DNA of 64,000 bases from Patescibacteria group bacterium (lineage in GTDB: Bacteria > Patescibacteriota > UBA1384 > GWA2-35-9 > JBASTP01), in NCBI GenBank assembly GCA_049274945.1, contig JBASTP010000005.1:3178-67177 (forward strand), given 5' to 3'. Shown piece by piece: positions 4,058-59,119 of this stretch (positions are counted from its first letter, which is position 1; each line of letters starts with the position of its first letter). The notes beneath the pieces were generated by a model, which saw nothing but the letters and a program-made list of their open reading frames with translations, did not search any database and was not told the DNA's origin. A program made the translations under genes and the position numbers.

Positions 4058-4522
4058 TTATCCTCTTATACCGCACGTAATCGCCACTGCCAGGGCATCG
4101 GCCGCGTCATCGGGCTTGGGGATGTGGTCGAGTTTCAAAAGCATCTTTACCATAGCTTGCACCTGCTCTTTATTGGCGCTCCCCGAGCTTGTTACCGTCT
4201 GTTTTACCTGGAGCGGGGTATATTCAAAAATAAGGGTGTGTGCCTGCGCTGCAGCTAACAGCGCCACACCCATGGCTTGCGATACGCGCATGGCGGTTTT
4301 TTGGTTGTTGTAAAAAAAGAGCTGTTCAAACCCAACACGATCGGGCTTTACTTTTTTGAGCAGCTTAGTAAGTTCTCGGTGGATTTCCTGGAGCCGCTCA
4401 GTGGCGCTACCGGCCTCAAGGCCAATGATGCCATAATCGAGCATGGTCATTGTACTGGCCTGAGTCTCGATTACCCCATAGCCTAAGCGCGTTGTACCAG
4501 GATCAATGCCTAATATCTTCAT
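4058..4522 (-). CDS. ruvC: Crossover junction endodeoxyribonuclease RuvC
   Basis: MKILGIDPGTTRLGYGVIE N-terminus carrying the RNase H-fold catalytic Asp. 154 aa. Confidence 0.9.
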   Translation of the reverse strand: MKILGIDPGTTRLGYGVIETQASTMTMLDYGIIGLEAGSATERLQEIHRELTKLLKKVKPDRVGFEQLFFYNNQKTAMRVSQAMGVALLAAAQAHTLIFEYTPLQVKQTVTSSGSANKEQVQAMVKMLLKLDHIPKPDDAADALAVAITCGIRG

Positions 4523-9251: not shown

Positions 9252-10395
9252 TTAAATAGATAGCTAGATACGCGATCACCGTAAGCCACCACGGCCAGTG
9301 CTCGATGGTTGTTCCGCTGCCCGGCAGCTTCGCCAACCACCTAGTCACTGCCACAATATACCAAGCAATTGGATACAGCGGATAGGCGAGTGGCAGGAGG
9401 GTTGGCCCGGCAAGGCTGCCAAGGATTCCAATAGTAAGTGCGGCAATAGTGAGGATCGGCACAATCGGCAAAATTAAAAAATTGGCGATAGGGGACAGGG
9501 GAGTGAGTTGGCCAAAATGAAAAAGCAGTATCGGCAATACCGCCAGCTGTGCGCCGAGGGTCTCACTAAGAATTGCAACTGTTGCGGATGAACGGCCAAT
9601 GATTGGCAATCGTCCTATCGCCTGCTTTAATAATGGTGCAATATATACCAAACCAAGAAATGCCATAAACGAAAGTTGAAACCCGATATCGTGCAACAAA
9701 ATTGAGGGCTTATGGATCACCATTACCGTAGCAGCAAAAACCAACATGGGCAGCACACTCCCCTGCCGCCCGGTGAGTTGCGCCACAAGAAGGAGCCACG
9801 CCAAAATTGCCGCGCGCACCACCGAAGCCTGGCCGCCCACCAATGCCGCAAACGCAACAATCACAAAACTTCCCACCAAAAATCGGAGCCACGGCGAAAG
9901 TAACTTAAGCCAATCCACAAAAATCTTTAGGACAATCGTCACGTTGTAGCCGCTCACTGCCACAATATGGAGCGTTCCGGTGGCGATAAAGCTTTGTCGA
10001 AGCTCGTTTGAAATCAGTCCCTTACCTCCTAGCACAATCGAGGCAACCAAATTGCCATACGGCACCGGCAGGCTTGTGGCAAAAAATCGCACAAACTCGC
10101 TACGCGCGGTAGCCAGGAGCTCGAATATTTTGAGGTTAGGCAGCTGCCAGGCCGTGCCATCACCTACCAGATTGTGCCAAGCAATACCGGCAAACAACGC
10201 TAAACTCCCAAGGGCTAACCACATCACTACCCGCCGATCGTTGAAATGGAAGGCGAGCGCAACGAGACTAATGCCAATCCACTGGAGCGTAGTATTGCGC
10301 AGCGGCTCGGCTACCGGCACCACCTGCCCCAGCGCAACCCCTACCAGGAATATGAGTTCCATTGCCACAAGGTAGGTTGCACGGTGGACGATCAT
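9199..10395 (-). CDS. comEC: ComEC N-terminal part (polytopic competence/DUF4131 channel domain)
   Basis: 398-aa ORF, highly hydrophobic and multi-TM, with ComEC competence-domain architecture. Confidence 0.75.
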   Translation of the reverse strand: MIVHRATYLVAMELIFLVGVALGQVVPVAEPLRNTTLQWIGISLVALAFHFNDRRVVMWLALGSLALFAGIAWHNLVGDGTAWQLPNLKIFELLATARSEFVRFFATSLPVPYGNLVASIVLGGKGLISNELRQSFIATGTLHIVAVSGYNVTIVLKIFVDWLKLLSPWLRFLVGSFVIVAFAALVGGQASVVRAAILAWLLLVAQLTGRQGSVLPMLVFAATVMVIHKPSILLHDIGFQLSFMAFLGLVYIAPLLKQAIGRLPIIGRSSATVAILSETLGAQLAVLPILLFHFGQLTPLSPIANFLILPIVPILTIAALTIGILGSLAGPTLLPLAYPLYPIAWYIVAVTRWLAKLPGSGTTIEHWPWWLTVIAYLAIYLIVSHFWKRHVHPASHQT

Positions 10396-22174: not shown

Positions 22175-22840
22175 ATGTTCAAGATACATAAATTCGACTT
22201 TCTGGTTTCTATCTACATTTTTTGCATTGCCGTTGCGGAACTCATGGGGGCCAAAACATTTCCCTTGGTCAATTCCGGAGCGCTAAAACTTAACGCAAGC
22301 GTGGCTATTTTTGTGATCCCGTTACTTTTTAGCATTAACGATATTATTACCGAGGTGTACGGCAAGGAGCGGGCGCGCAGTGTGATCCGTTCCGGTTTGC
22401 TGGTGATCTTTTTGATTTTGATGTTTTCGCTCCTCGCAATCCACCTACCGCCATCGAGCCGGTTCGCCGCGTCCGAGAAGGCGTATGACGATATTTTTGG
22501 TAAATCGGCGCGCATTGCCGCTGCCAGCCTTACTGCGTTTGGCATCGCCGATTTTCTCGACGTTTTTATTTTCAGCAAGATTCGTGAAAAATTTGGAACA
22601 AAAGCGTTGTGGTTTCGCAATAACGCTTCCAACTTCGTTTCGCAATTGGTCGACACTACTCTCTTTATGTTCTTAGCGTTTTACGCTTTTCAAAAACCGC
22701 TTGGCGATAACGTGACATTTTTATGGAGTCTCATTTTACCCTACTGGCTCCTTAAGTGTTTCATGTCGGTAATCGAGACGCCTTTTGTGTACCTAGGAGT
22801 TAGGTGGCTCGGCAATGAACCTAACCGAAGTAAAAAATAG
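22175..22840 (+). CDS. yhhQ: Queuosine precursor transporter, YhhQ/DUF165 family
   Basis: 221 aa, 6 TM helices. The conserved DxxxE-containing loop (INDIITEVYGKERAR) is typical of the VUT/YhhQ family. Confidence 0.65.
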   Translation: MFKIHKFDFLVSIYIFCIAVAELMGAKTFPLVNSGALKLNASVAIFVIPLLFSINDIITEVYGKERARSVIRSGLLVIFLILMFSLLAIHLPPSSRFAASEKAYDDIFGKSARIAAASLTAFGIADFLDVFIFSKIREKFGTKALWFRNNASNFVSQLVDTTLFMFLAFYAFQKPLGDNVTFLWSLILPYWLLKCFMSVIETPFVYLGVRWLGNEPNRSKK

Positions 22841-22950
22841 CGGGTCCTGGCTTGGGTACCGCCTCGGGCGTGCGCTCTATAGGAGCGCGTCGGCCGTAAC
22901 AGGCTTCCTATGGCGCTAGCAACCCGCCCTCCCCTCGCACCCTTCGCCAC
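22841..22950 (+). repeat. GC-rich MITE-like intergenic repeat, copy A (internally deleted)
   Basis: The element is about 68% GC. Its 3' 34 nt are the exact reverse complement of the 5' end of copy B (45751-45784). Its 5' ~45 nt are about 90% identical to the reverse complement of the copy B 3' end. Confidence 0.55.
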
Positions 22951-22961
22951 CCGCTTATCTA

Positions 22962-24221: not shown

Positions 24222-24386
24222 TATATAACAACCTTTTTCTTTAATAAAGATGGGTGCATACGCTTCACCATTATTCCATTATAATATAAAATAAGTAAGA
24301 CAATTGGGCCTGTAGCCCCGACGCAAGGTCGGGGTCCCGACTTCAAAGAACGTCGGGACTCAGTGTCCCTTTGTTATGAAAATTAT

Positions 24387-24681
24387 GGGCCTGTAGCTCA
24401 GTGGTAGAGCAATTGCCTTCAACTTAGGAGCCTCAAGAAGGAAACGAACTTTTTGAGTGGATATCGCTATATGCTGGAACACCCCGCACCTTTTCATGAA
24501 AAGGTGCGGGACAATCAGCAGGGAAGTGCTTCGACTTCGCTCAGCACCCCTCAGAGACTATACGCGGTACACCTGCGATGGTGAAGAGATAGTCCAGCCT
24601 ACAACCACTTTTAGTGAGGCCACGGTAACGTGGAGTAGGATGTTAAGCAATGTGTCGCGGGTTCGATCCCCGCCAGGCCCT
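24387..24681 (+). tRNA. tRNA-Lys(UUU) interrupted by a group I intron in the anticodon loop (exons 24387-24419 and 24643-24681)
   Basis: Acceptor GGGCCTG/CAGGCCC, D-arm GCTCAGTGGTAGAGC, anticodon stem ATTGC/GCAAT, T-arm GCGGGTTCGATCCCCGC. The 5' anticodon-stem strand is followed by CTT and the 3' strand is preceded by TTAA. The only junction with a 5'-exon U and an intron-terminal G gives loop CTTTTAA (anticodon UUU), with the intron between positions 34 and 35. Confidence 0.7.
24420..24642 (+). ncRNA. Group I self-splicing intron (223 nt, no ORF) within tRNA-Lys
   Basis: CAGAGACTATA at 24551-24561 and GAAGAGATAGTCC at 24583-24595 match, from memory, the group I intron R and S core elements (Tetrahymena GUUCACAGACUAAA and AAGAUAUAGUCGG). 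A long P5/P6-like hairpin CCCGCACCTTTTC-ATG-AAAAGGTGCGGG, a P9-like hairpin with GTAA tetraloop, and a 3'-terminal G are also present. Confidence 0.7.
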
Positions 24682-24693
24682 CATTTCAGAAAG

Positions 24694-24717: not shown

Positions 24718-24730
24718 GAAACTGGCAAGT

Positions 24731-24887
24731 GGGGATCGAACAGGAAAAAGGGTCGGAAAAAACACTTTGTTTTTTCCGTTTGCGGAAGCACATGAAACCG
24801 CAGGGTTTCATGCAGCAAATCTGCCGTAGCGATGCAGCTATAGCTTAGGCAGATTTGCTGGTGAGATTCCCCGCCAGGCCCTCATAC
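24731..24887 (+). repeat. tRNA-linked structured element, Lys copy
   Basis: Begins with GGGGATCGAAC, the reverse complement of the tRNA-Lys T-arm. The core CGAACAGGAAAAAGGGTCGGAAAAAACACTTTGTTTTTTCCGTTTGCGGAAGCACATGAAACCGCAGGGTTTCATG is homologous to the element after tRNA-Met (46334-46471). Ends GGTGAGATTCC plus an 18-nt copy of the tRNA-Lys 3' end (CCCCGCCAGGCCCTCAT). Confidence 0.5.
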
Positions 24888-25014
24888 CCTTCGATAAAGC
24901 TTCCGACTCCGCCCTCACTGCGTTGGACAAGTCGTGTGGCGAGCCACCCTTTCTGGGTGCGAACCATACGAACCGGTTGATTTTTTAGATTATTGAGATA
25001 ATACTTAAGATACT

Positions 25015-26091
25015 ATGGTGGGTAACATCTCACATAGAGTATTAGTGCTCGCAACTGTGTTATGGTCAGTACTGCTCGTTACATCGGTCATGGCTCAACC
25101 GATCAAGTTTGACGAACCGGTACAAACGATTCCCGGAAGAGGACTTGGCCGTATCGTATCGCTCTACTACCGAATCGCGGTCCAACTTACGCCCTCACCG
25201 CAAGAAAAGTTCACAATTCTGAATCGGCAGAGCGACTGGACGATTAAGGCATACCACCAGACGATCGATAATGATCCAGAGTTGGCACAAAAAATCCTGC
25301 AGATCTACCTGACCGATATCACCAGAAAACGAGAAAATCTTGCGGAGATGACAGAGGAACTACGAATGCAATCGATCACACGAATTGCGACCGAACAGGA
25401 TGCACTAGCTAAAACTATCACGAGTCGGCAAGACCAAGGGATACTGCAAAGATCAGACGAAACACAGTCCAATAAACCACCATCCCCTACCAGACCAGGA
25501 GCCAAACAACCAACAACCTCTACTGCTAGAGTTGCATCGAACAATCCACCGCCAGAAAACGGCCCAGTACCGAGCCAATCGCCGACAATCACTCAACCCG
25601 ACCCGTCAACGCAACCATCGGAAACCTCATCACCGCAGACGCCGATCTGCCCTTCAGGATCGTTCCCAATCCAACAGTTCAATGGCACCTGGAGTTGCGT
25701 CGAAACATTCAAAACAAGTCCGACCACCCCCACTGCAGAGCCAGTTGACCGACTTTGTGCAACTGAGAAGGTACCATACCCTGCTGACCCTAAAAAGAAA
25801 ATCACCCTTGACACGAGTTCATACACCTGCCGAGAACCAGGCTGGATCACCACTACACAAGGATCAAATCCATTTCCAACCGCCCTCCCATACTGCAGTA
25901 CTCAACGAGATACTGGTCTGCCACCGTCAGGGTACTATTTCCCATATTACAATTCGAGCACCAAAATAGGTTTGCTCTGTGCGTTCGATGTCGGTTCGCT
26001 CACGATCGTGTGTCCCGAGCCAAGGGTTGCAGAAGAACTGAAATCATACTACGGTTCCCGCTACAAAAAAGAGTACTTTTGTTTGTATTAA
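25015..26091 (+). CDS. Secreted hypothetical protein with PST-rich linker and Cys-rich C-terminal domain
   Basis: 358 aa. Signal peptide, helical N-domain, a P/S/T/Q low-complexity region, and a C-terminal region with 10 Cys. AT-richer than its surroundings and bracketed by partial copies of the tRNA-Lys 3' end. Confidence 0.55.
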   Translation: MVGNISHRVLVLATVLWSVLLVTSVMAQPIKFDEPVQTIPGRGLGRIVSLYYRIAVQLTPSPQEKFTILNRQSDWTIKAYHQTIDNDPELAQKILQIYLTDITRKRENLAEMTEELRMQSITRIATEQDALAKTITSRQDQGILQRSDETQSNKPPSPTRPGAKQPTTSTARVASNNPPPENGPVPSQSPTITQPDPSTQPSETSSPQTPICPSGSFPIQQFNGTWSCVETFKTSPTTPTAEPVDRLCATEKVPYPADPKKKITLDTSSYTCREPGWITTTQGSNPFPTALPYCSTQRDTGLPPSGYYFPYYNSSTKIGLLCAFDVGSLTIVCPEPRVAEELKSYYGSRYKKEYFCLY

Positions 26092-26104: not shown

Positions 26105-26125
26105 ATCCCCGCCGGGCCCTCATAC
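26105..26125 (+). repeat. Third partial copy of the tRNA-Lys 3' end (TATCCCCGCCGGGCCCTCATAC)
   Basis: Matches tRNA-Lys 3'-end positions and the copy at 24866-24887, including the shared trailing CATAC. One substitution (A to G). Confidence 0.4.
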
Positions 26126-41738: not shown

Positions 41739-41768
41739 ATTGTAGTACAAAATAGTTACTAATGTCAA
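41739..41768 (-). promoter_or_regulatory. groES promoter TTGACA-18-TACAAT (minus strand)
   Basis: Minus-strand -35 at 41763-41768 and -10 at 41739-41744. RBS AAGGAAGG. No CIRCE element found. Confidence 0.5.
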
Positions 41769-41785
41769 GAGCTTCAAAGTAAGCT

Positions 41786-41970
41786 TTGGCGAAGCGGAGC
41801 CAACCCGAGGCAGTTGCGAGCGCCATTGGAAGCGAAGCGCTCCAATCCCGGCGAGCTGCCTGGACGACGGGACCCCGAGCTTTGTCGAGGGGCAGGAGCT
41901 ACCAAGCAGCGAGCCGAAGGACGAGCCGGAGGCGAGTAGAGCGCTGCCGAGGGTGGCTACGCGAGCCAGC
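41786..41970 (+). repeat. Divergent third copy of the GC-rich MITE-like repeat (copy C)
   Basis: Begins TGGCGAAGCGGAGCC..., compared with TGGCGAAGGGTGCG in copy B. Its 3' end GAGTAGAGCGCTGCCGAGGGTGGCTACGCGAGCCAG parallels copy B ATGTAGAGCGCACGCCCCGAGGCGGTACCCGAGCCAG. About 62% GC. Confidence 0.4.
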
Positions 41971-42450
41971 TTAAGATTTTGGCGGGTGAAAACCGAGTTC
42001 TTGGTCTGAAAAGCGCACTTGCGAGCCCAGTTGGTTAGTGCGGGGATCTCGGCGAAAGCGAGCTTGCTGGAAGCGCTTCGCTAGTTGCTCGAGTAGTTGC
42101 CCAAAAGACCCTGAGAGCAGCCGCTCGAAAAGATTTAATTCAGAGCTCGTTCGTTGCCAGAGTACCTGATGGACACGACCCTGACGAGCCGGGCCATCAA
42201 ATGTTGCAAACCAGTTTAAACAAATCCTGCCGGCAACTGCCTGACCATGCCGCCGCACACCGAGCAGTTGAATAACGGTGGTAACAAAAAACCGCGTAAA
42301 ATAGAGTCTGCCCGGCCTGACTTGGATAAAAAAATCGATGTCCGATCCTTTATGTTGCCGGCCTTCGGCAAGCGATCCAGTCAAACTCACCCGTTCGACG
42401 AATGGCAACTTTCCGATAATCCGCGCGTAGTGTTTGGCTTTTTCGATCAT
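41971..42450 (-). CDS. Nucleotidyltransferase-domain protein (minimal NTase fold)
   Basis: GSLAEGRQHKGSDIDFFI matches GSx9-13Dx(D/E). The C-terminal half is of doubtful coding quality and runs into the GC-rich repeat. Confidence 0.45.
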   Translation of the reverse strand: MIEKAKHYARIIGKLPFVERVSLTGSLAEGRQHKGSDIDFFIQVRPGRLYFTRFFVTTVIQLLGVRRHGQAVAGRICLNWFATFDGPARQGRVHQVLWQRTSSELNLFERLLSGSFGQLLEQLAKRFQQARFRRDPRTNQLGSQVRFSDQELGFHPPKS

Positions 42451-42471
42451 CGTGTACTACAATGGTACAAC

Positions 42472-43440
42472 ATGGCGAAAGTATTTTCTGCTATTAGACC
42501 CTCGGGCGAGCTCCATCTTGGTAATTACCTCGGAGCCATTAAGCAATGGGTGGAGCTCCAGCAAAAGCACACCTGTTTTTTTGCGGTCGCCGACTACCAC
42601 GCGATTACGACACCATTTGATCCAAAAAAACTGCCGATATTTACCGAAGACTTAGTTGCGTGGTTTTTGGCAGCCGGACTCGACCCTAAAAAAGTCACCC
42701 TCTTCCGCCAATCAGATGTTCCCGAACACACCGAGCTTTCATGGCTGCTCACTGCCATTACCTCGTTGAGTGAGCTCGAACGAATGACTCAATTCAAGGA
42801 AAAAACAGCGCAACAAAAGGGTTCTGTAGCAGCTGGTTTGCTTAGCTATCCCACTCTTATGGCAGCCGATATTCTCCTCTACCAGGCGGAGCTTGTGCCG
42901 GTTGGGGAAGATCAAGTGCAGCACATTGAATTCACCCGGGAACTTGTGCGCCGGTTTACCAGCCGCTTTGGTAAATTGTTTGTCGAACCCAGGCCGCTCC
43001 TGACTACGCTTCCCAGAATTATGTCTTTAACCAATCCTAACGAAAAAATGAGCAAAACCGGCGCTTCGGGCATTGCCCTGGCTGACTCAGCCAAAACCAT
43101 TGAACACAAAATTATGACGGCAGTAACCGACACCAAAGCAACCCCGGGCGCTGTATCGGCTGGCGTTGCTAATCTTTTTGGTATTCTCGAACTCTTCGAT
43201 AAACTACTTGCAACCAAGCTCAGGGGAGAATATGACCAAGGTAACTTTAAGTACGTCACCCTTAAACAAGCACTTTCGAATGCGGTAATTAAGGAACTCA
43301 CGCCCCTTCAGAAAAAGCACGATAAAATCATTAACGAGCAAGGCATGGTTAAAACCGTGCTAGCCGAAGGGGCACTCAAAGCCCGGCCGGTAGCGCAAAA
43401 AACACTGAGTCATGCCAAAAAATTGATGGGTCTCGCTTAA
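42472..43440 (+). CDS. trpS: Tryptophanyl-tRNA synthetase
   Basis: Trimmed to MAKVFSAIRPSGELHLGNYLGAI (class I HIGH-like motif) with KMSKTG (KMSKS) present. A TACAAT -10 ends 8 nt before the ATG, so the mRNA is probably leaderless. Confidence 0.9.
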   Translation: MAKVFSAIRPSGELHLGNYLGAIKQWVELQQKHTCFFAVADYHAITTPFDPKKLPIFTEDLVAWFLAAGLDPKKVTLFRQSDVPEHTELSWLLTAITSLSELERMTQFKEKTAQQKGSVAAGLLSYPTLMAADILLYQAELVPVGEDQVQHIEFTRELVRRFTSRFGKLFVEPRPLLTTLPRIMSLTNPNEKMSKTGASGIALADSAKTIEHKIMTAVTDTKATPGAVSAGVANLFGILELFDKLLATKLRGEYDQGNFKYVTLKQALSNAVIKELTPLQKKHDKIINEQGMVKTVLAEGALKARPVAQKTLSHAKKLMGLA

Positions 43441-45739: not shown

Positions 45740-45900
45740 GTGTCCTGGCGAAGGGTGCGAGGGGAGGGCGGGTTGCTAGCCTGCCTGCCGGTAGGCAGGC
45801 GCCACAGGAAGGGAGCATCCAGCAGCGAACGAAGTGAGCTCTCTAGGAGCGACCGCTCATGTAGAGCGCACGCCCCGAGGCGGTACCCGAGCCAGGACAC
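45740..45900 (+). repeat. GC-rich MITE-like intergenic repeat, copy B (full length, inverted relative to copy A)
   Basis: 161 bp, about 68% GC. Terminal inverted repeat GTGTCCTGGC...GCCAGGACAC and an internal hairpin GCCTGCC-GGTA-GGCAGGC. Confidence 0.55.
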
Positions 45901-45945
45901 TCGCTAGGAAACAGTTTTGATCATTCGCAATGGTATAATGGGATT

Positions 45946-46692: not shown

Positions 46693-47323
46693 CATACCAC
46701 TGCGGCTTTCGCCGTCCCAAAAAAGGTTTGTGGTCTGGACTATACCTTATCCCGATACAACGTTGTCGGGATCCCGCCATCTAGTCTCTACACCTTACCC
46801 GATGTATATCGGGTCTTGGCTCGGTATTACCATATCTACAGAGATAAGGCTTCACCGAATTTGACGGGTATTGCCCCGCTCGTTACCGAGCGGGCGGCCC
46901 ACGATGACAACAAATCCCAACGTTCCCTGTAAGCAGCTGCGATCGGTTTTCGCTGCCTTTTTTCGACTTCTACGAGCGCGATTGTACTGCCATAACGTAC
47001 AAAAATTTCAACTGGAATCACGTAGAAGACAGGGCCTTGATCAATGTAGACGATTGCAAGGTCAAAATCTTCATTGTTGTAACGCTCTCTTCGCATCACC
47101 CGCCGGTTGGTTTTGGTCCTGCGCACATCTACGGCAAAGTAATTATTGGCAGGAACAAACCACGCGTGCTTGATCTGGATACGAATGAGCTTTCCGTTGA
47201 GGTCAACTGCTATGTCATAAGGTAATCGATCACCAACTGGTTTGAGTACCTTAAAGCCTCGACGAAGAAGTTCTGTTACAACAGCTGACTCCGCAATGTC
47301 TGCCTTGAGTTTTGTGTCCATTG
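46693..47323 (-). mobile_element. Group I intron carrying an internal homing-endonuclease-like ORF
   Basis: Core elements on the minus strand are GTAGAGACTAGATGG (R-like) and AAGGTATAGTCCAG (S-like), plus P9-like CGGC-GAAA-GCCG and a terminal G before CATAA. The ORF starts 2 nt after the 5' splice site and occupies the 5' part of the intron. Confidence 0.7.
46836..47321 (-). CDS. Intron-encoded PD-(D/E)XK-type putative homing endonuclease
   Basis: 161 aa, MDTKLKADIAESAVVTELLRRGFKV.... PYDIAVDLNGKLIRIQIK has D...D/E-x-K restriction-endonuclease-fold spacing. The track ORF 46836-47351 begins with an upstream GTG that is actually tRNA exon 1. Confidence 0.55.
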   Translation of the reverse strand: MDTKLKADIAESAVVTELLRRGFKVLKPVGDRLPYDIAVDLNGKLIRIQIKHAWFVPANNYFAVDVRRTKTNRRVMRRERYNNEDFDLAIVYIDQGPVFYVIPVEIFVRYGSTIALVEVEKRQRKPIAAAYRERWDLLSSWAARSVTSGAIPVKFGEALSL

Positions 47324-47457
47324 AGCCTGGCGAGCTACCGGACTGCTCCACCCCGCGATGTTATTAGTGTTCGCTGTCGCACAAAATAATCTGCGACAGT
47401 ATCCGTATTATACACATATTTACATTCTCGTGTAAAGATCGTAAGCTAAAGTTCGCA

Positions 47458-53862: not shown

Positions 53863-54765
53863 CTATACCGCAAATCGGAAGTGCACCACATCGCCATCTT
53901 GGACTATATAATCTTTTCCTTCAATCCTGAGCTTTCCCGCAGCTTTAGCTCCCTGCTCTCCGTTATATTCAAGATAATCCGTAAAGCTAATCACTTCAGC
54001 CTTAATGAATCCTTTCTGAAAATCAGTGTGAATTACGCCAGCTGCCTCGGGCGCTGTTGCATCTTGTTTTACCGTCCAGGCGCGCACCTCTTCCGGGCCG
54101 GCCGTAAAAAATGTTTGTAATCCGAGCAGTTTGTAGCTTTCACGAATCACCCGATTAAGCGGCGGCTCTGTAACTCCCAGCTCATCGAGGAGGGTTTTTT
54201 GATCATCGGCCGGCAGCTGCGCAAGCTCTGCCTCAAGCCGGGCGGCGATGCGCAGCCACCCCTGCGGCGGGTGATTCTTAAGCTCTTGGTCTGACACGTT
54301 TTCCACGATAAGATGCGGTTTTTCCATAAGGGGGAGAGCATCGGGATGCTCCTCGTCGGCAAGGCCGAGTTCGGTTTCCAAAATTTTCAAATCATCTGCC
54401 GAATCAACCCGGCCTTCGGTGTGAATAATGTCGGGATCAGAAAATGAACGCAACAGAATAATAATCGCATCAACCTCGCGGATATGCGCTAAAAACTTGT
54501 TGCCCAATCCCTCACCTTGAGCGGCACCTTTTACGAGTCCTGCGATATCAACGAACTCAATCGTTGCGGGAATAATTTTCTTCGGCTTGGCAATGGCAGC
54601 GAGCTCGTGTAATCGTGGATCGGGCACGTCGACTACACCCACATTCGGCTCTATGGTGGTAAATGGCCGGTTGGCGGCCTGGGCTTGCTCGCGCTTAAGT
54701 AGCGCATTAAACAAGGTCGACTTGCCCGCGTTGGGGAGTCCCACAATTCCGATTCGTAACGACAT
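53863..54765 (-). CDS. ychF: Ribosome-binding ATPase YchF (Obg-family)
   Basis: GIVGLPNAGKSTLFNAL and NPFTTIEPNVG G-motifs plus a C-terminal TGS domain. 300 aa. Confidence 0.85.
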   Translation of the reverse strand: MSLRIGIVGLPNAGKSTLFNALLKREQAQAANRPFTTIEPNVGVVDVPDPRLHELAAIAKPKKIIPATIEFVDIAGLVKGAAQGEGLGNKFLAHIREVDAIIILLRSFSDPDIIHTEGRVDSADDLKILETELGLADEEHPDALPLMEKPHLIVENVSDQELKNHPPQGWLRIAARLEAELAQLPADDQKTLLDELGVTEPPLNRVIRESYKLLGLQTFFTAGPEEVRAWTVKQDATAPEAAGVIHTDFQKGFIKAEVISFTDYLEYNGEQGAKAAGKLRIEGKDYIVQDGDVVHFRFAV

Positions 54766-57851: not shown

Positions 57852-59119
57852 GCCTTCACTACTCAAAAACTCAACTTAAAAACGGTTTGCGGATTATCAC
57901 CGCGCCTAAGCACGATACCAATGCCGTGGCCGTGCTGATTTTAGTGAAAGTCGGCAGCCGCTACGAAACCGAAGCTCAGGCCGGCTTGTCGCACTTCCTT
58001 GAACACATGTTTTTCAAAGGCACCAGGAAACGGCCCACCTACCTCCACGTTTCCAAAGAACTCGATGGCCTGGGCGCCAACTTTAACGCCTTTACCTCCG
58101 AAGAGTACACCGGATTTTATGTCCAAACCTCGGGCGATCACTTTGACCAAGCGCTCGATGTGTTGGCCGACATGCTCTTAAACGGAACACTGCCTGAAGC
58201 CGAGGTACTTAAGGAACGCGACGTGATTACTGAAGAGCTCAACATGTACCTGGATATGCCCCAATCACACGTAGCGGATTTGGCCAAGCGAACGCTCTTT
58301 GGCCAAAATCCGCTGGGCCGGCCGATTATCGGCTACCGCGAAACGATCACTGCAACCACCCGTGAGGAGTTAATTAACTACAAAGAAACATTCTACCAAC
58401 CGCCGGCAATGCTCGTGGCCGTGGCCGGCAGCGGGAAGCCCGAGCACTGGCGCGCTATGGTTGAGGGCTACTTTGGCAAATTACCCACCGCTACGTCCCC
58501 CGGCTATGAACAATTTAGGAGCGGGCAAGCTCCTCGCACCATGATTGGCAACAAAAAAACCGACCAAGCCCACTTTGTACTCGGCCTGCCCTCGCTTGCC
58601 CGCTCCGATTCCCGCCGCTACACGCTACGCGTGTTAAACAACGCCCTGGGCGGCATGATGTCCTCGCGACTCTTTACCGAAATCCGAGAAAAACGCGGCC
58701 TAGCATATTATGTGGGCTCCGGCAGTGATGAGTACGAGGAAACGGGCGCGTTTTTTATTCGTGCCGGAGTTCCGACTACCAAGGTAGAGGAGGCAATCAA
58801 GATAGCGCGTAAGGAGCTGGAAAAAATAACCAAAACTAAACTTCGAGCAGAAGAATTAAGCCGGGCCAAGGAAAATATCAAAGGGCGCACCTACCTGGAA
58901 CTCGAAGATTCATTCGCCGTGGCAAACTTCTTGGCCGAGCAAGAACTTTTCCTTGATACCATTGAACAACCAGAAGAGCTGATTGCCAGGGTTGAAGCGG
59001 TAACTGCTTCTGATATAATCGAGCTAGCCCGGGAACTTGTATCGCCGGAGCTAATGCGGCTAGCGGTCGTTGGTCCGTACGAAGATAAAGCCAAGTTTGA
59101 AAAGTTGCTCAACCCCTGA
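57848..59119 (+). CDS. M16-family zinc peptidase (insulinase-like)
   Basis: Trimmed to the ATG overlapping the dedA stop (ATGA). Inverted zinc motif HFLEHMFFKG (HxxEH) with downstream E. Confidence 0.8.
   Translation: MSLHYSKTQLKNGLRIITAPKHDTNAVAVLILVKVGSRYETEAQAGLSHFLEHMFFKGTRKRPTYLHVSKELDGLGANFNAFTSEEYTGFYVQTSGDHFDQALDVLADMLLNGTLPEAEVLKERDVITEELNMYLDMPQSHVADLAKRTLFGQNPLGRPIIGYRETITATTREELINYKETFYQPPAMLVAVAGSGKPEHWRAMVEGYFGKLPTATSPGYEQFRSGQAPRTMIGNKKTDQAHFVLGLPSLARSDSRRYTLRVLNNALGGMMSSRLFTEIREKRGLAYYVGSGSDEYEETGAFFIRAGVPTTKVEEAIKIARKELEKITKTKLRAEELSRAKENIKGRTYLELEDSFAVANFLAEQELFLDTIEQPEELIARVEAVTASDIIELARELVSPELMRLAVVGPYEDKAKFEKLLNP

Follow-up and report, generated by a model that had tools for sequence, protein, structure and literature searches.

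Genomic neighbourhood of the three elements

The window (the whole 64-kb stretch of DNA that was analysed) comes from a CPR bacterium whose closest GroEL matches are Berkelbacteria-like CPR MAGs, with identity of at most about 71% to any GTDB species representative. Genomes of CPR bacteria (Patescibacteria) are about 1 Mb in size, tightly packed and generally thought to be poor in mobile DNA. The window carries three copies of a GC-rich element, here called A, B and C, flanked by the genes that an initial sequence-only reading had named for them, as checked by Pfam and NCBI names. Copy A (22841..22953, sense strand −; short subtype, 113 nt) lies between a YhhQ/Vut_1 gene and a gene for a CofE-like ligase, beginning directly past the Vut_1/YhhQ stop codon and ending 8 nt before the ATG of the cofE-like gene. 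Copy B (45740..45900, +; medium subtype, 161 nt) is located between the gene for an FN3 protein and a DivIC/FtsB-like gene, 19 nt past the FN3 stop codon and upstream of the divIC-like promoter. Copy C (41784..41975, +; long subtype, about 190 nt) is found between an ORF with an NTase domain and the groES promoter (41739-41768); it abuts the stop codon of the NTase-domain ORF, encoded on the minus strand, and lies about 16 nt upstream of the groES −35 box. The interval from stop codon to copy start is 0–19 nt in each of the three cases. A and C are antisense to both flanking genes and B is sense, and the orientations (one minus, two plus) reveal no bias within the apparent single replichore. 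A scan for promoter-like or terminator-like sites belonging to the copies found none.

For comparison we used the relative GCA_964342885.1, the origin of loci L104 and L108, which is 92-96% identical to the window genome over longer stretches, and two further relatives, L106 and L107, with 81-86% nucleotide identity to the window. The NTase-domain ORF beside C (41971-42450, −) overlaps the annotated start of a Tyr/Trp-tRNA synthetase ORF (42247-43440, +) by about 200 nt, and its C-terminal end differs from that in L104, which has about 25 extra nucleotides beside element C; the element appears to have reshaped the end of this ORF.

Homology of the copies

The three copies are homologous, as had been proposed from the letters of the window. 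A pattern built on their 3' motifs matches exactly these three places, compared with zero matches expected (100 shuffles), and two covariance models run over the 64 kb (R1, derived from the window copies only, and R2) identified no fourth copy. The R1 scores are 112.6 bits for A (76.9 bits with R2), 130 bits for B and 93.7 bits for C. Copy B is bounded by the perfect 10-nt terminal inverted repeat originally described (GTGTCCTGGC, 45740-45749, and GCCAGGACAC, 45891-45900). The exact reverse-complement match of A to B is likewise real, its length being 35 nt and not the 34 nt first given; it comprises the 5' arm at 45746..45780 (+) and positions 22915-22949. The other end of A, estimated earlier to be about 90% like B, exhibits 91-96% identity (22844-22887 against 45854-45898). 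A is indeed inverted relative to B, with its hairpin extending to 22953, and C is a true, more divergent member of the family in the orientation of B. It shares with the other copies TGGCGAAG, GTTGCnAGCGCCAYWGGAAG and TAGAGCGC..CCGAGG..TAC.C.AGCCAG. All three copies contain the conserved motifs M1 (GCGCCAYWGGAAG; B 45799..45811 (+), C 41820-41832 (+), A 22904-22916 (−)) and M2 (TAGAGCGC; B 45862..45869 (+), C 41937-41944 (+), A 22872-22879 (−)). Relative to A, copy B has an extra 20-nt hairpin (GCCTGCCTGCCGGTAGGCAG), and the interior of C is occupied by the module GAGCTGCCTGGACGACGGGACC..CAGGAGCTACCAAGCAGC. The GC-richness pointed out initially is evident (0.66-0.70 GC in the copies versus 0.51 in the window), but many of the window's coding stretches match these values, and the copies stand out in composition only as intergenic DNA.

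The copies are small (113-192 nt, against the limit of roughly 500 bp set for a MITE), dispersed and devoid of a transposase ORF, with related or orthologous copies in L104, L108, L014 and L110. One may ask whether they are similar by chance or are the decayed remnants of a protein-coding gene, the outcome that the sequence-only reading had named as its own refutation. A and C do each have one open frame across the element, with the peptide VASAIGS common to both. Nevertheless, the exact 35-nt match and the ordered motifs have an expectation of zero, the frames differ between copies and from that of the ychF member described below, the insertions are not multiples of three (the 20-nt insertion inside B among them), and the ORF spanning C has no protein homologue, which also means that the copies have not been recorded as spurious genes elsewhere. 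Frame-breaking indels and unconserved frames exclude a coding origin, and the probability of this explanation as a whole is negligible.

Fold, conserved motifs and strand asymmetry

Every copy folds as one long imperfect hairpin. Its base is an invariant GGC/GCC stem with 4-6 variable outer pairs (GTGTCC/GGACAC, GCGGGT/ACCCGC or AAGC/GCTT); across copies only (T)GGC/GCC(A) is constant at the termini, while the outer pairs differ and co-vary. Further inwards, a GA(A)/GA internal loop leads to one or two GC-rich helices, and a second GA/GA loop to another helix; enclosed by the helices are the core, GUUGCnAGCGCCAYWGGAAG ... UAGAGCGCAC, and the optional internal hairpin modules. It is the core that holds M1 and M2, both conserved and apparently unpaired. 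The interval between them is 20-24 nt in the short subtype, to which B adds the further 20-nt hairpin and C a module of about 115 nt. Five of the seven copies have 32 nt from GGC to M1 and a sixth has 31 nt, B being exceptional owing to its extra hairpin. The GAA/GA loops do not fit the K-turn consensus upon inspection.

When the arms of seven copies were aligned, with the interiors removed by hand and the C subtype standing two pairs out of register, 86% of the cells were paired and 10 of the 18 pairs showed changes on both sides. None of 500 shuffles reached these values, and sliding the partner by 1-3 columns reduced the pairing to 30-44%. The covariation statistics are weak because there are only 7-8 alignable copies, representing about four independent lineages or subtypes, and because these sequences also served to derive the structure. 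The compensatory changes include GGGCG/CGCCC to GGGUG/CAUCC, GCG/CGC to CCGG/CCGG and GGGU/ACCC to GCUU/AAGC, and the GA-rich loops together with M1 and M2 are preserved despite the changes in the stems.

The two strands are not equivalent. The sense strand consists of 57-70% purines and carries G.U pairs, with no A.C mismatches. With RNA parameters it folds better than the antisense strand in nine of ten copies, by 4-9 kcal/mol in the copies of the window family, whereas with DNA energy parameters the asymmetry nearly disappears; the z-scores are modest (−0.2 to −2.8). In these predicted folds, the strand features point to one functional strand, whether acting as RNA or as single-stranded DNA.

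One candidate explanation is that the copies are structured small RNA genes or cis-regulatory RNAs (serving mRNA 3'-end protection, termination or protein binding) that are kept because they benefit the host. Co-varying stems with conserved unpaired motifs, G.U pairs confined to one strand, the asymmetry under RNA parameters and the position of all three window copies close behind a stop codon are all in keeping with this idea. It is harder to reconcile with the inconsistent orientation to the flanking genes (antisense to both in A and C, sense in B), with the lack of promoter-like or terminator-like sites of the copies' own in the scan, and with the behaviour of the family detailed in the following sections: site A is empty in relatives, the element at site B is flipped in a near-identical genome, and one member is translated in-frame inside ychF. 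The copies also match no Rfam 15 family at gathering thresholds, in agreement with the original view that this is not a known ncRNA; the best permissive match, obtained for B, is Cobalamin with 11.5 bits against a threshold of 31.5. We therefore regard an RNA function as quite improbable. An intrinsic terminator was considered separately and rejected, since no U-tract directly follows the B hairpin and the terminator scan was negative.

Orthologous sites in related genomes

The sequence-only reading recommended looking for presence or absence of the element in orthologous intergenic regions, and both states are seen at site A. The window and L108 carry the element at this site, L106 does not (its Vut_1 and cofE genes overlap by ATGA), and L107 has only a 19-nt remnant of an element end. 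The L108 copy (A2, 4105-4213) is orthologous to A, with flanks 99-99.7% identical, and differs from it by a cluster of changes, GAGGGGA to CAGCCGA, in which pairing is restored. Relative to L106, the block inserted in the window, as delimited by alignment and blastn HSP boundaries, spans about 132 nt (22825..22956); besides the hairpin it includes 16 nt to one side and 3 nt to the other.

Site C is also occupied in the relative: the orthologous copy C2 (L104:2846-3033) exhibits coordinated changes in both arms, GCG/CGC to CCGG/CCGG. Site B is occupied in L104 as well, in this case by a 197-nt copy of the long subtype (B2) in the opposite orientation; the flanks (300-600 nt) are 98.7-99.3% identical between the two genomes. 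The 8 nt immediately after B, TCGCTAGG (45901..45908), together with the preceding ACAC, can be aligned pairwise with the end CTCTCGCCAGG of the inverted L104 element at the same site, and may be what is left of an earlier copy that had the opposite orientation.

The situation at site B could suggest an inverton, i.e. a DNA switch flipped by a recombinase, with B and the L104 copy as its two states: opposite orientations occur at one intergenic site, with flanks about 99% identical and just upstream of the divIC-like promoter. Yet neither copy is the reverse complement of the other: modules of 20 nt and roughly 75 nt distinguish them, and the alignment of their arms (38-39 nt, 6-7 mismatches, two gap positions) rules out simple inversion in place. 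In addition, there is no promoter-like site within the element, and A and C have the same orientation in the window genome and in GCA_964342885.1. A switch of this kind is accordingly very hard to credit.

Further hints at the dynamics of the family come from variants shared by different copies of one genome. The variant GGTGCGAGGGGAGGG is common to A and B in the window genome, and GGTrCCAGCCGAGGG is common to A2 and B2 in the relative; this sharing within each genome indicates homogenisation or re-insertion. Three short-read contigs end in or beside copies: the Logan contig L105 ends at about 45775, inside the 35-nt exact repeat, L109 ends inside A, and L001 ends 23 nt before C. Such breaks in assemblies are accounted for by the copies being members of a hairpin repeat family. 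Orthologous sites have seen gains, losses, replacements and inversions of copies, and a hairpin family turning over between close genomes would be a handy marker of strain-level dynamics.

We then have to consider a classical MITE, that is, a deletion derivative of a DDE-type IS moved as double-stranded DNA via its terminal inverted repeats and duplicating the target site. The perfect 10-bp terminal inverted repeat of B and the small size of the elements, which have no ORF, are features of this kind, and a possible 5-bp duplication, CCTAA (22820-22824)/TCTAA (22957-22961), surrounds the site A block as defined against L106. This candidate is weak and restricted to site A, no duplication being recognisable at B, at C or at the ychF site. 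Moreover, the outermost 4-6 bp of the supposed repeat vary and co-vary between copies, as noted above, and the conserved parts are internal and unpaired, the reverse of what a transposase binding terminal repeats would conserve. A cognate IS with the same ends and an ORF, which the sequence-only reading suggested should be sought, was encountered neither in the window nor in about 0.8 Mb of CPR loci. A MITE in this strict sense is hence an unlikely identity for the element. The original proposal of a MITE or REP-like structured repeat survives as far as mobile or recombining hairpin DNA is concerned, given the filled and empty sites, the flipped subtype, the ychF insertion and the contig breaks; its classical MITE hallmarks are putative at most.

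A family member in the ychF gene and more distant matches

In 686 kb of CPR loci searched, R1 yielded one match, L014:9064-9168 (26 bits, E 0.016) in a distant CPR MAG, and it coincides exactly with a 99-nt (33-codon) in-frame insertion in the ychF gene. Orthologues with 72-75% identity lack the 33-aa insertion; those without it include L018, L003 and the majority of the orthologues. The L014 ychF copy has GGCGA, M1 (as GCGCCACAGAAAG), M2 and GAGCC in the same order and spacing as the other copies, with stems made of AT-richer complementary pairs, GCUU/AAGC and GUCAAAAG/CUUUUGAC. An orthologous YchF insertion of 30 aa is present in L110 (protein P0067; 40 bits with R2), in which the arms and M2 are kept and a simple GC hairpin replaces M1, and in the YchF orthologue P0068 the last few codons of the insertion remain. 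A family member can therefore sit in-frame in a conserved gene, and the initial description of the element as strictly intergenic applies to all three window copies and not to the whole family, which has members inside ychF in L014 and L110. As the family reaches in-frame into essential genes, it is a source of protein-length variation in the phylum.

L111 and L113 have other GC-rich hairpin insertions at the same ychF position and with the same architecture (GGC(C) stem, GA/GA loops, GCGAAG motifs), but these score only about 9 bits and were not counted as members. A second type of short GC-rich in-frame ychF insertion, gcctacgccaaggatacggcggcc, occurs in orthologues of the clade (L014 8850-8905; P0073, P0104 and P0109). 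It is read as SPAYAKDTAAGQ at one L014 site and, in a different frame, as LRQGYGGQA at a separate site in other lineages. Judging from this second type, hairpin insertions in coding genes seem common in these genomes. In the window itself, two other inverted repeats, at 54144-54277 in ychF and at 58518-58606 in a gene for an M16 peptidase, appear to be plain coding sequence.

The family was also sought on a broader scale. Neither 185,579 species genomes nor the JGI metagenomes gave a match to the exact 3'-motif pattern. A looser M1-M2-M3 pattern gave 22 matches in metagenomes, one of which is the L014 contig itself; 20 of the 22 were dismissed as chance matches inside conserved coding genes of unrelated organisms. 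A match in L101, corresponding to the C-terminal tail of a sigma-54 regulator beside flagellar genes, is also probably due to chance. The hairpin element is previously undescribed and has no sequence relative in Rfam or among phage records, plasmid records and viral contigs.

A candidate transposase and the proposed mechanism

The gene adjoining ychF in L110 encodes a 234-aa Y1 (HUH) transposase (Pfam Y1_Tnp, 43.6 bits); its best NCBIfam match, REP-associated tyrosine transposase, has 69.6 bits where the curated cut-off is 80. Homologues of this protein (about 221 aa) are abundant, with 3570 matches at E<=1e-15 and 57-71% identity among those listed, and the named ones come from Patescibacteria or Berkelbacteria. 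By tblastn, there was no homologue of a Y1 or other transposase in the window or in the examined sequence of the close relatives. Single-copy, vertically inherited RAYTs are known (PMC5581495), and the RAYT-like Y1 family of CPR bacteria resembles them. The L110 gene (739-1443, −) has a palindrome of about 45 nt on either side (690-735 and 1425-1470), TAACCAT..CCACCCC(T/A)GGGGTGG..GGTTTA, of which L014 has a single copy without the gene, at the corresponding position upstream of ychF (9650-9690). These bordering palindromes (CCACCCCWGGGGTGG) are unrelated in sequence to the hairpin element.

Considering all of the above, the hairpin copies are probably non-autonomous, structure-dependent palindromic mobile elements (99-197 nt) of Berkelbacteria-like Patescibacteria. 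The retention of unpaired motifs, the co-variation of stems, the strand-specific features and an orientation independent of transcription would all be expected if the element were recognised as a folded single strand and not via terminal repeats. The feature under selection would then be the fold of one strand, presumably the purine-rich sense strand, and the element may be handled as folded single-stranded DNA, which fits the apparent selection on that strand. Because conserved Y1 homologues resembling single-copy RAYTs are so abundant, we propose mobilisation in trans by such an enzyme, the likeliest candidate being the conserved RAYT-like Y1 (HUH) tyrosine transposase of the clade, in a manner similar to that proposed for REPINs. 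The window copies might persist only where they are tolerated, right past stop codons and upstream of promoters, any function for the host being putative at most.

A more far-reaching interpretation, which we put forward as speculative and rather doubtful, is that the element is the REPIN-like partner of the highly conserved, apparently single-copy RAYT-like Y1 transposase in Berkelbacteria-type CPR bacteria, whose genomes are among the smallest known. The two would be linked in a long-lived association in which M1 and M2, on the folded purine-rich strand, would constitute the functional core and essential proteins would be remodelled in-frame, the recurrent ychF insertion site being an example. 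In a still more daring variant, the conserved core would be a nucleic-acid motif of a new class that acts catalytically or recruits proteins. Should the RAYT-like enzyme indeed be linked to the element, REPIN-RAYT biology would be extended to another phylum, and the family would offer a compact model for structure-dependent single-strand transposition.

Comparison with known repeat systems

In the literature searched, CPR bacteria do not figure among the hosts of MITE, REPIN or RAYT systems, and the element is compared here with systems from other hosts. By analogy, it seems to work most like a REPIN. The REPIN/REP-RAYT systems (PMC3116915, PMC3337134, PMC3733652) likewise comprise non-autonomous, GC-rich imperfect palindromes that form one long hairpin, lie mostly outside genes near gene 3' ends and share variants within a genome, and a conserved, seemingly single-copy Y1 transposase homologue is present in the clade studied here. 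The palindromic hairpin with an inverted pair of arms that typifies REPs is apparent from the folds and from the covariation of the arms. On the other hand, REPs have a conserved GTAG or CGTC tetranucleotide at one end (PMC3733652), whereas the termini here are GGCGA... and ...GAGCC, and GTAG occurs only internally, within M2, in B, C and C2, with ATAG or GTAA in the other copies. The element is also of greater length and complexity, with its conserved unpaired core motifs and optional internal modules, it has a member inside a coding gene (ychF in L014/L110), and its host is a CPR bacterium. REP/REPIN systems are further defined by a location exclusively outside genes and by tens to hundreds of copies per genome; here the window copies, three in 64 kb, are extragenic and the L014 and L110 members intragenic. 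The one RAYT-like gene whose context was seen, that of L110, has another palindrome at its borders.

The in-frame ychF member resembles, by analogy only, the Rickettsia palindromic elements (PMC10969869), to which it is not known to be related in sequence. Those are palindromes of about 100-150 bp that occur in intergenic regions as well as in-frame in conserved genes, in a small reduced genome; the in-frame palindromic insertion missing from orthologues that characterises them has its counterpart in the YchF insertions of 33 aa (L014) and 30 aa (P0067/L110). The differences lie in the phylum, in the frame and peptide, which are unconserved among the present copies, and in the location of the window copies, all of which are intergenic.

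Bacterial MITEs of the Correia/NEMIS, ERIC and BOX kinds are similarly small and dispersed, with inverted termini, presence/absence polymorphism and positions near promoters and gene ends; in the present family neither a target duplication nor a parent IS is demonstrated, and conservation resides in the structure and the internal motifs instead of the termini. Lastly, palindrome-associated elements (PATEs), which derive from IS200/IS605 and are moved as single-stranded DNA by the Y1 TnpA, are comparable in the apparently strand-specific fold, the orientation independent of transcription, the lack of a clear duplication and the presence of a Y1 enzyme in related genomes. Unlike in PATEs, we recognised no subterminal pair of left and right hairpins and no conserved target tetranucleotide, and the three copies show no strand bias with respect to GC skew.

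Two other types of element were examined and set aside. An integron attC site is excluded by the missing GTTRRRY/RYYYAAC core, the housekeeping neighbours and the mixed orientations, and a DGR template/variable repeat by the non-coding nature of the copies and the lack of adenine-specific differences.

Introns and other repeats around tRNA genes

Two tRNA genes in the window are split in the anticodon loop by group I introns (47352-46655 (−) and 24390-24690 (+)). The intron of the first, a tRNA-fMet-like gene, matches Rfam RF00028 (53 bits, 46716-47004) and encodes a PD-(D/E)XK endonuclease (ORF 46836-47351, PF11645). The second split tRNA gene was missed by ARAGORN, and its intron (24409-24615) scores 40.6 bits, below the gathering score.

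A second repeat family is found 40-75 nt downstream of tRNA genes (24729-24890 (+) and 46472-46333 (−) in the window, and L104 7485-7569). Each member has at its 5' end an inverted copy of the T-arm of the neighbouring tRNA; a 90-nt core of about 85% identity leads into a variable hairpin, after which the 3' end of that tRNA is duplicated exactly. The inverted T-arm pairs with the duplicated T-arm/acceptor strand and so closes a four-hairpin fold with compensatory changes (z = −2.2 and −8.2), for which Rfam has no match. The family has the look of a miniature integrative element with att-like tRNA repeats at its borders, or alternatively of a structured RNA. Nearby, a 358-aa ORF (25015-26091, +) lies between the second copy of the tRNA 3' end, TCCCCGCCrGGCCCTCA, at 24868, and the third, at 26106 (26106-26125). 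Pfam, NCBIfam, PHROG and PDB sequences gave no match for this ORF, which a small element targeting tRNA genes might carry as cargo or use as its recombinase. A third small repeat family near tRNA genes, about 100 nt long (24312-24410), consists of a partial copy of a tRNA 5' end, GGGCCTGTAGC, followed by a GC hairpin, and is repeated twice beside tRNA-Met in the close relative (L104 7670-7854).
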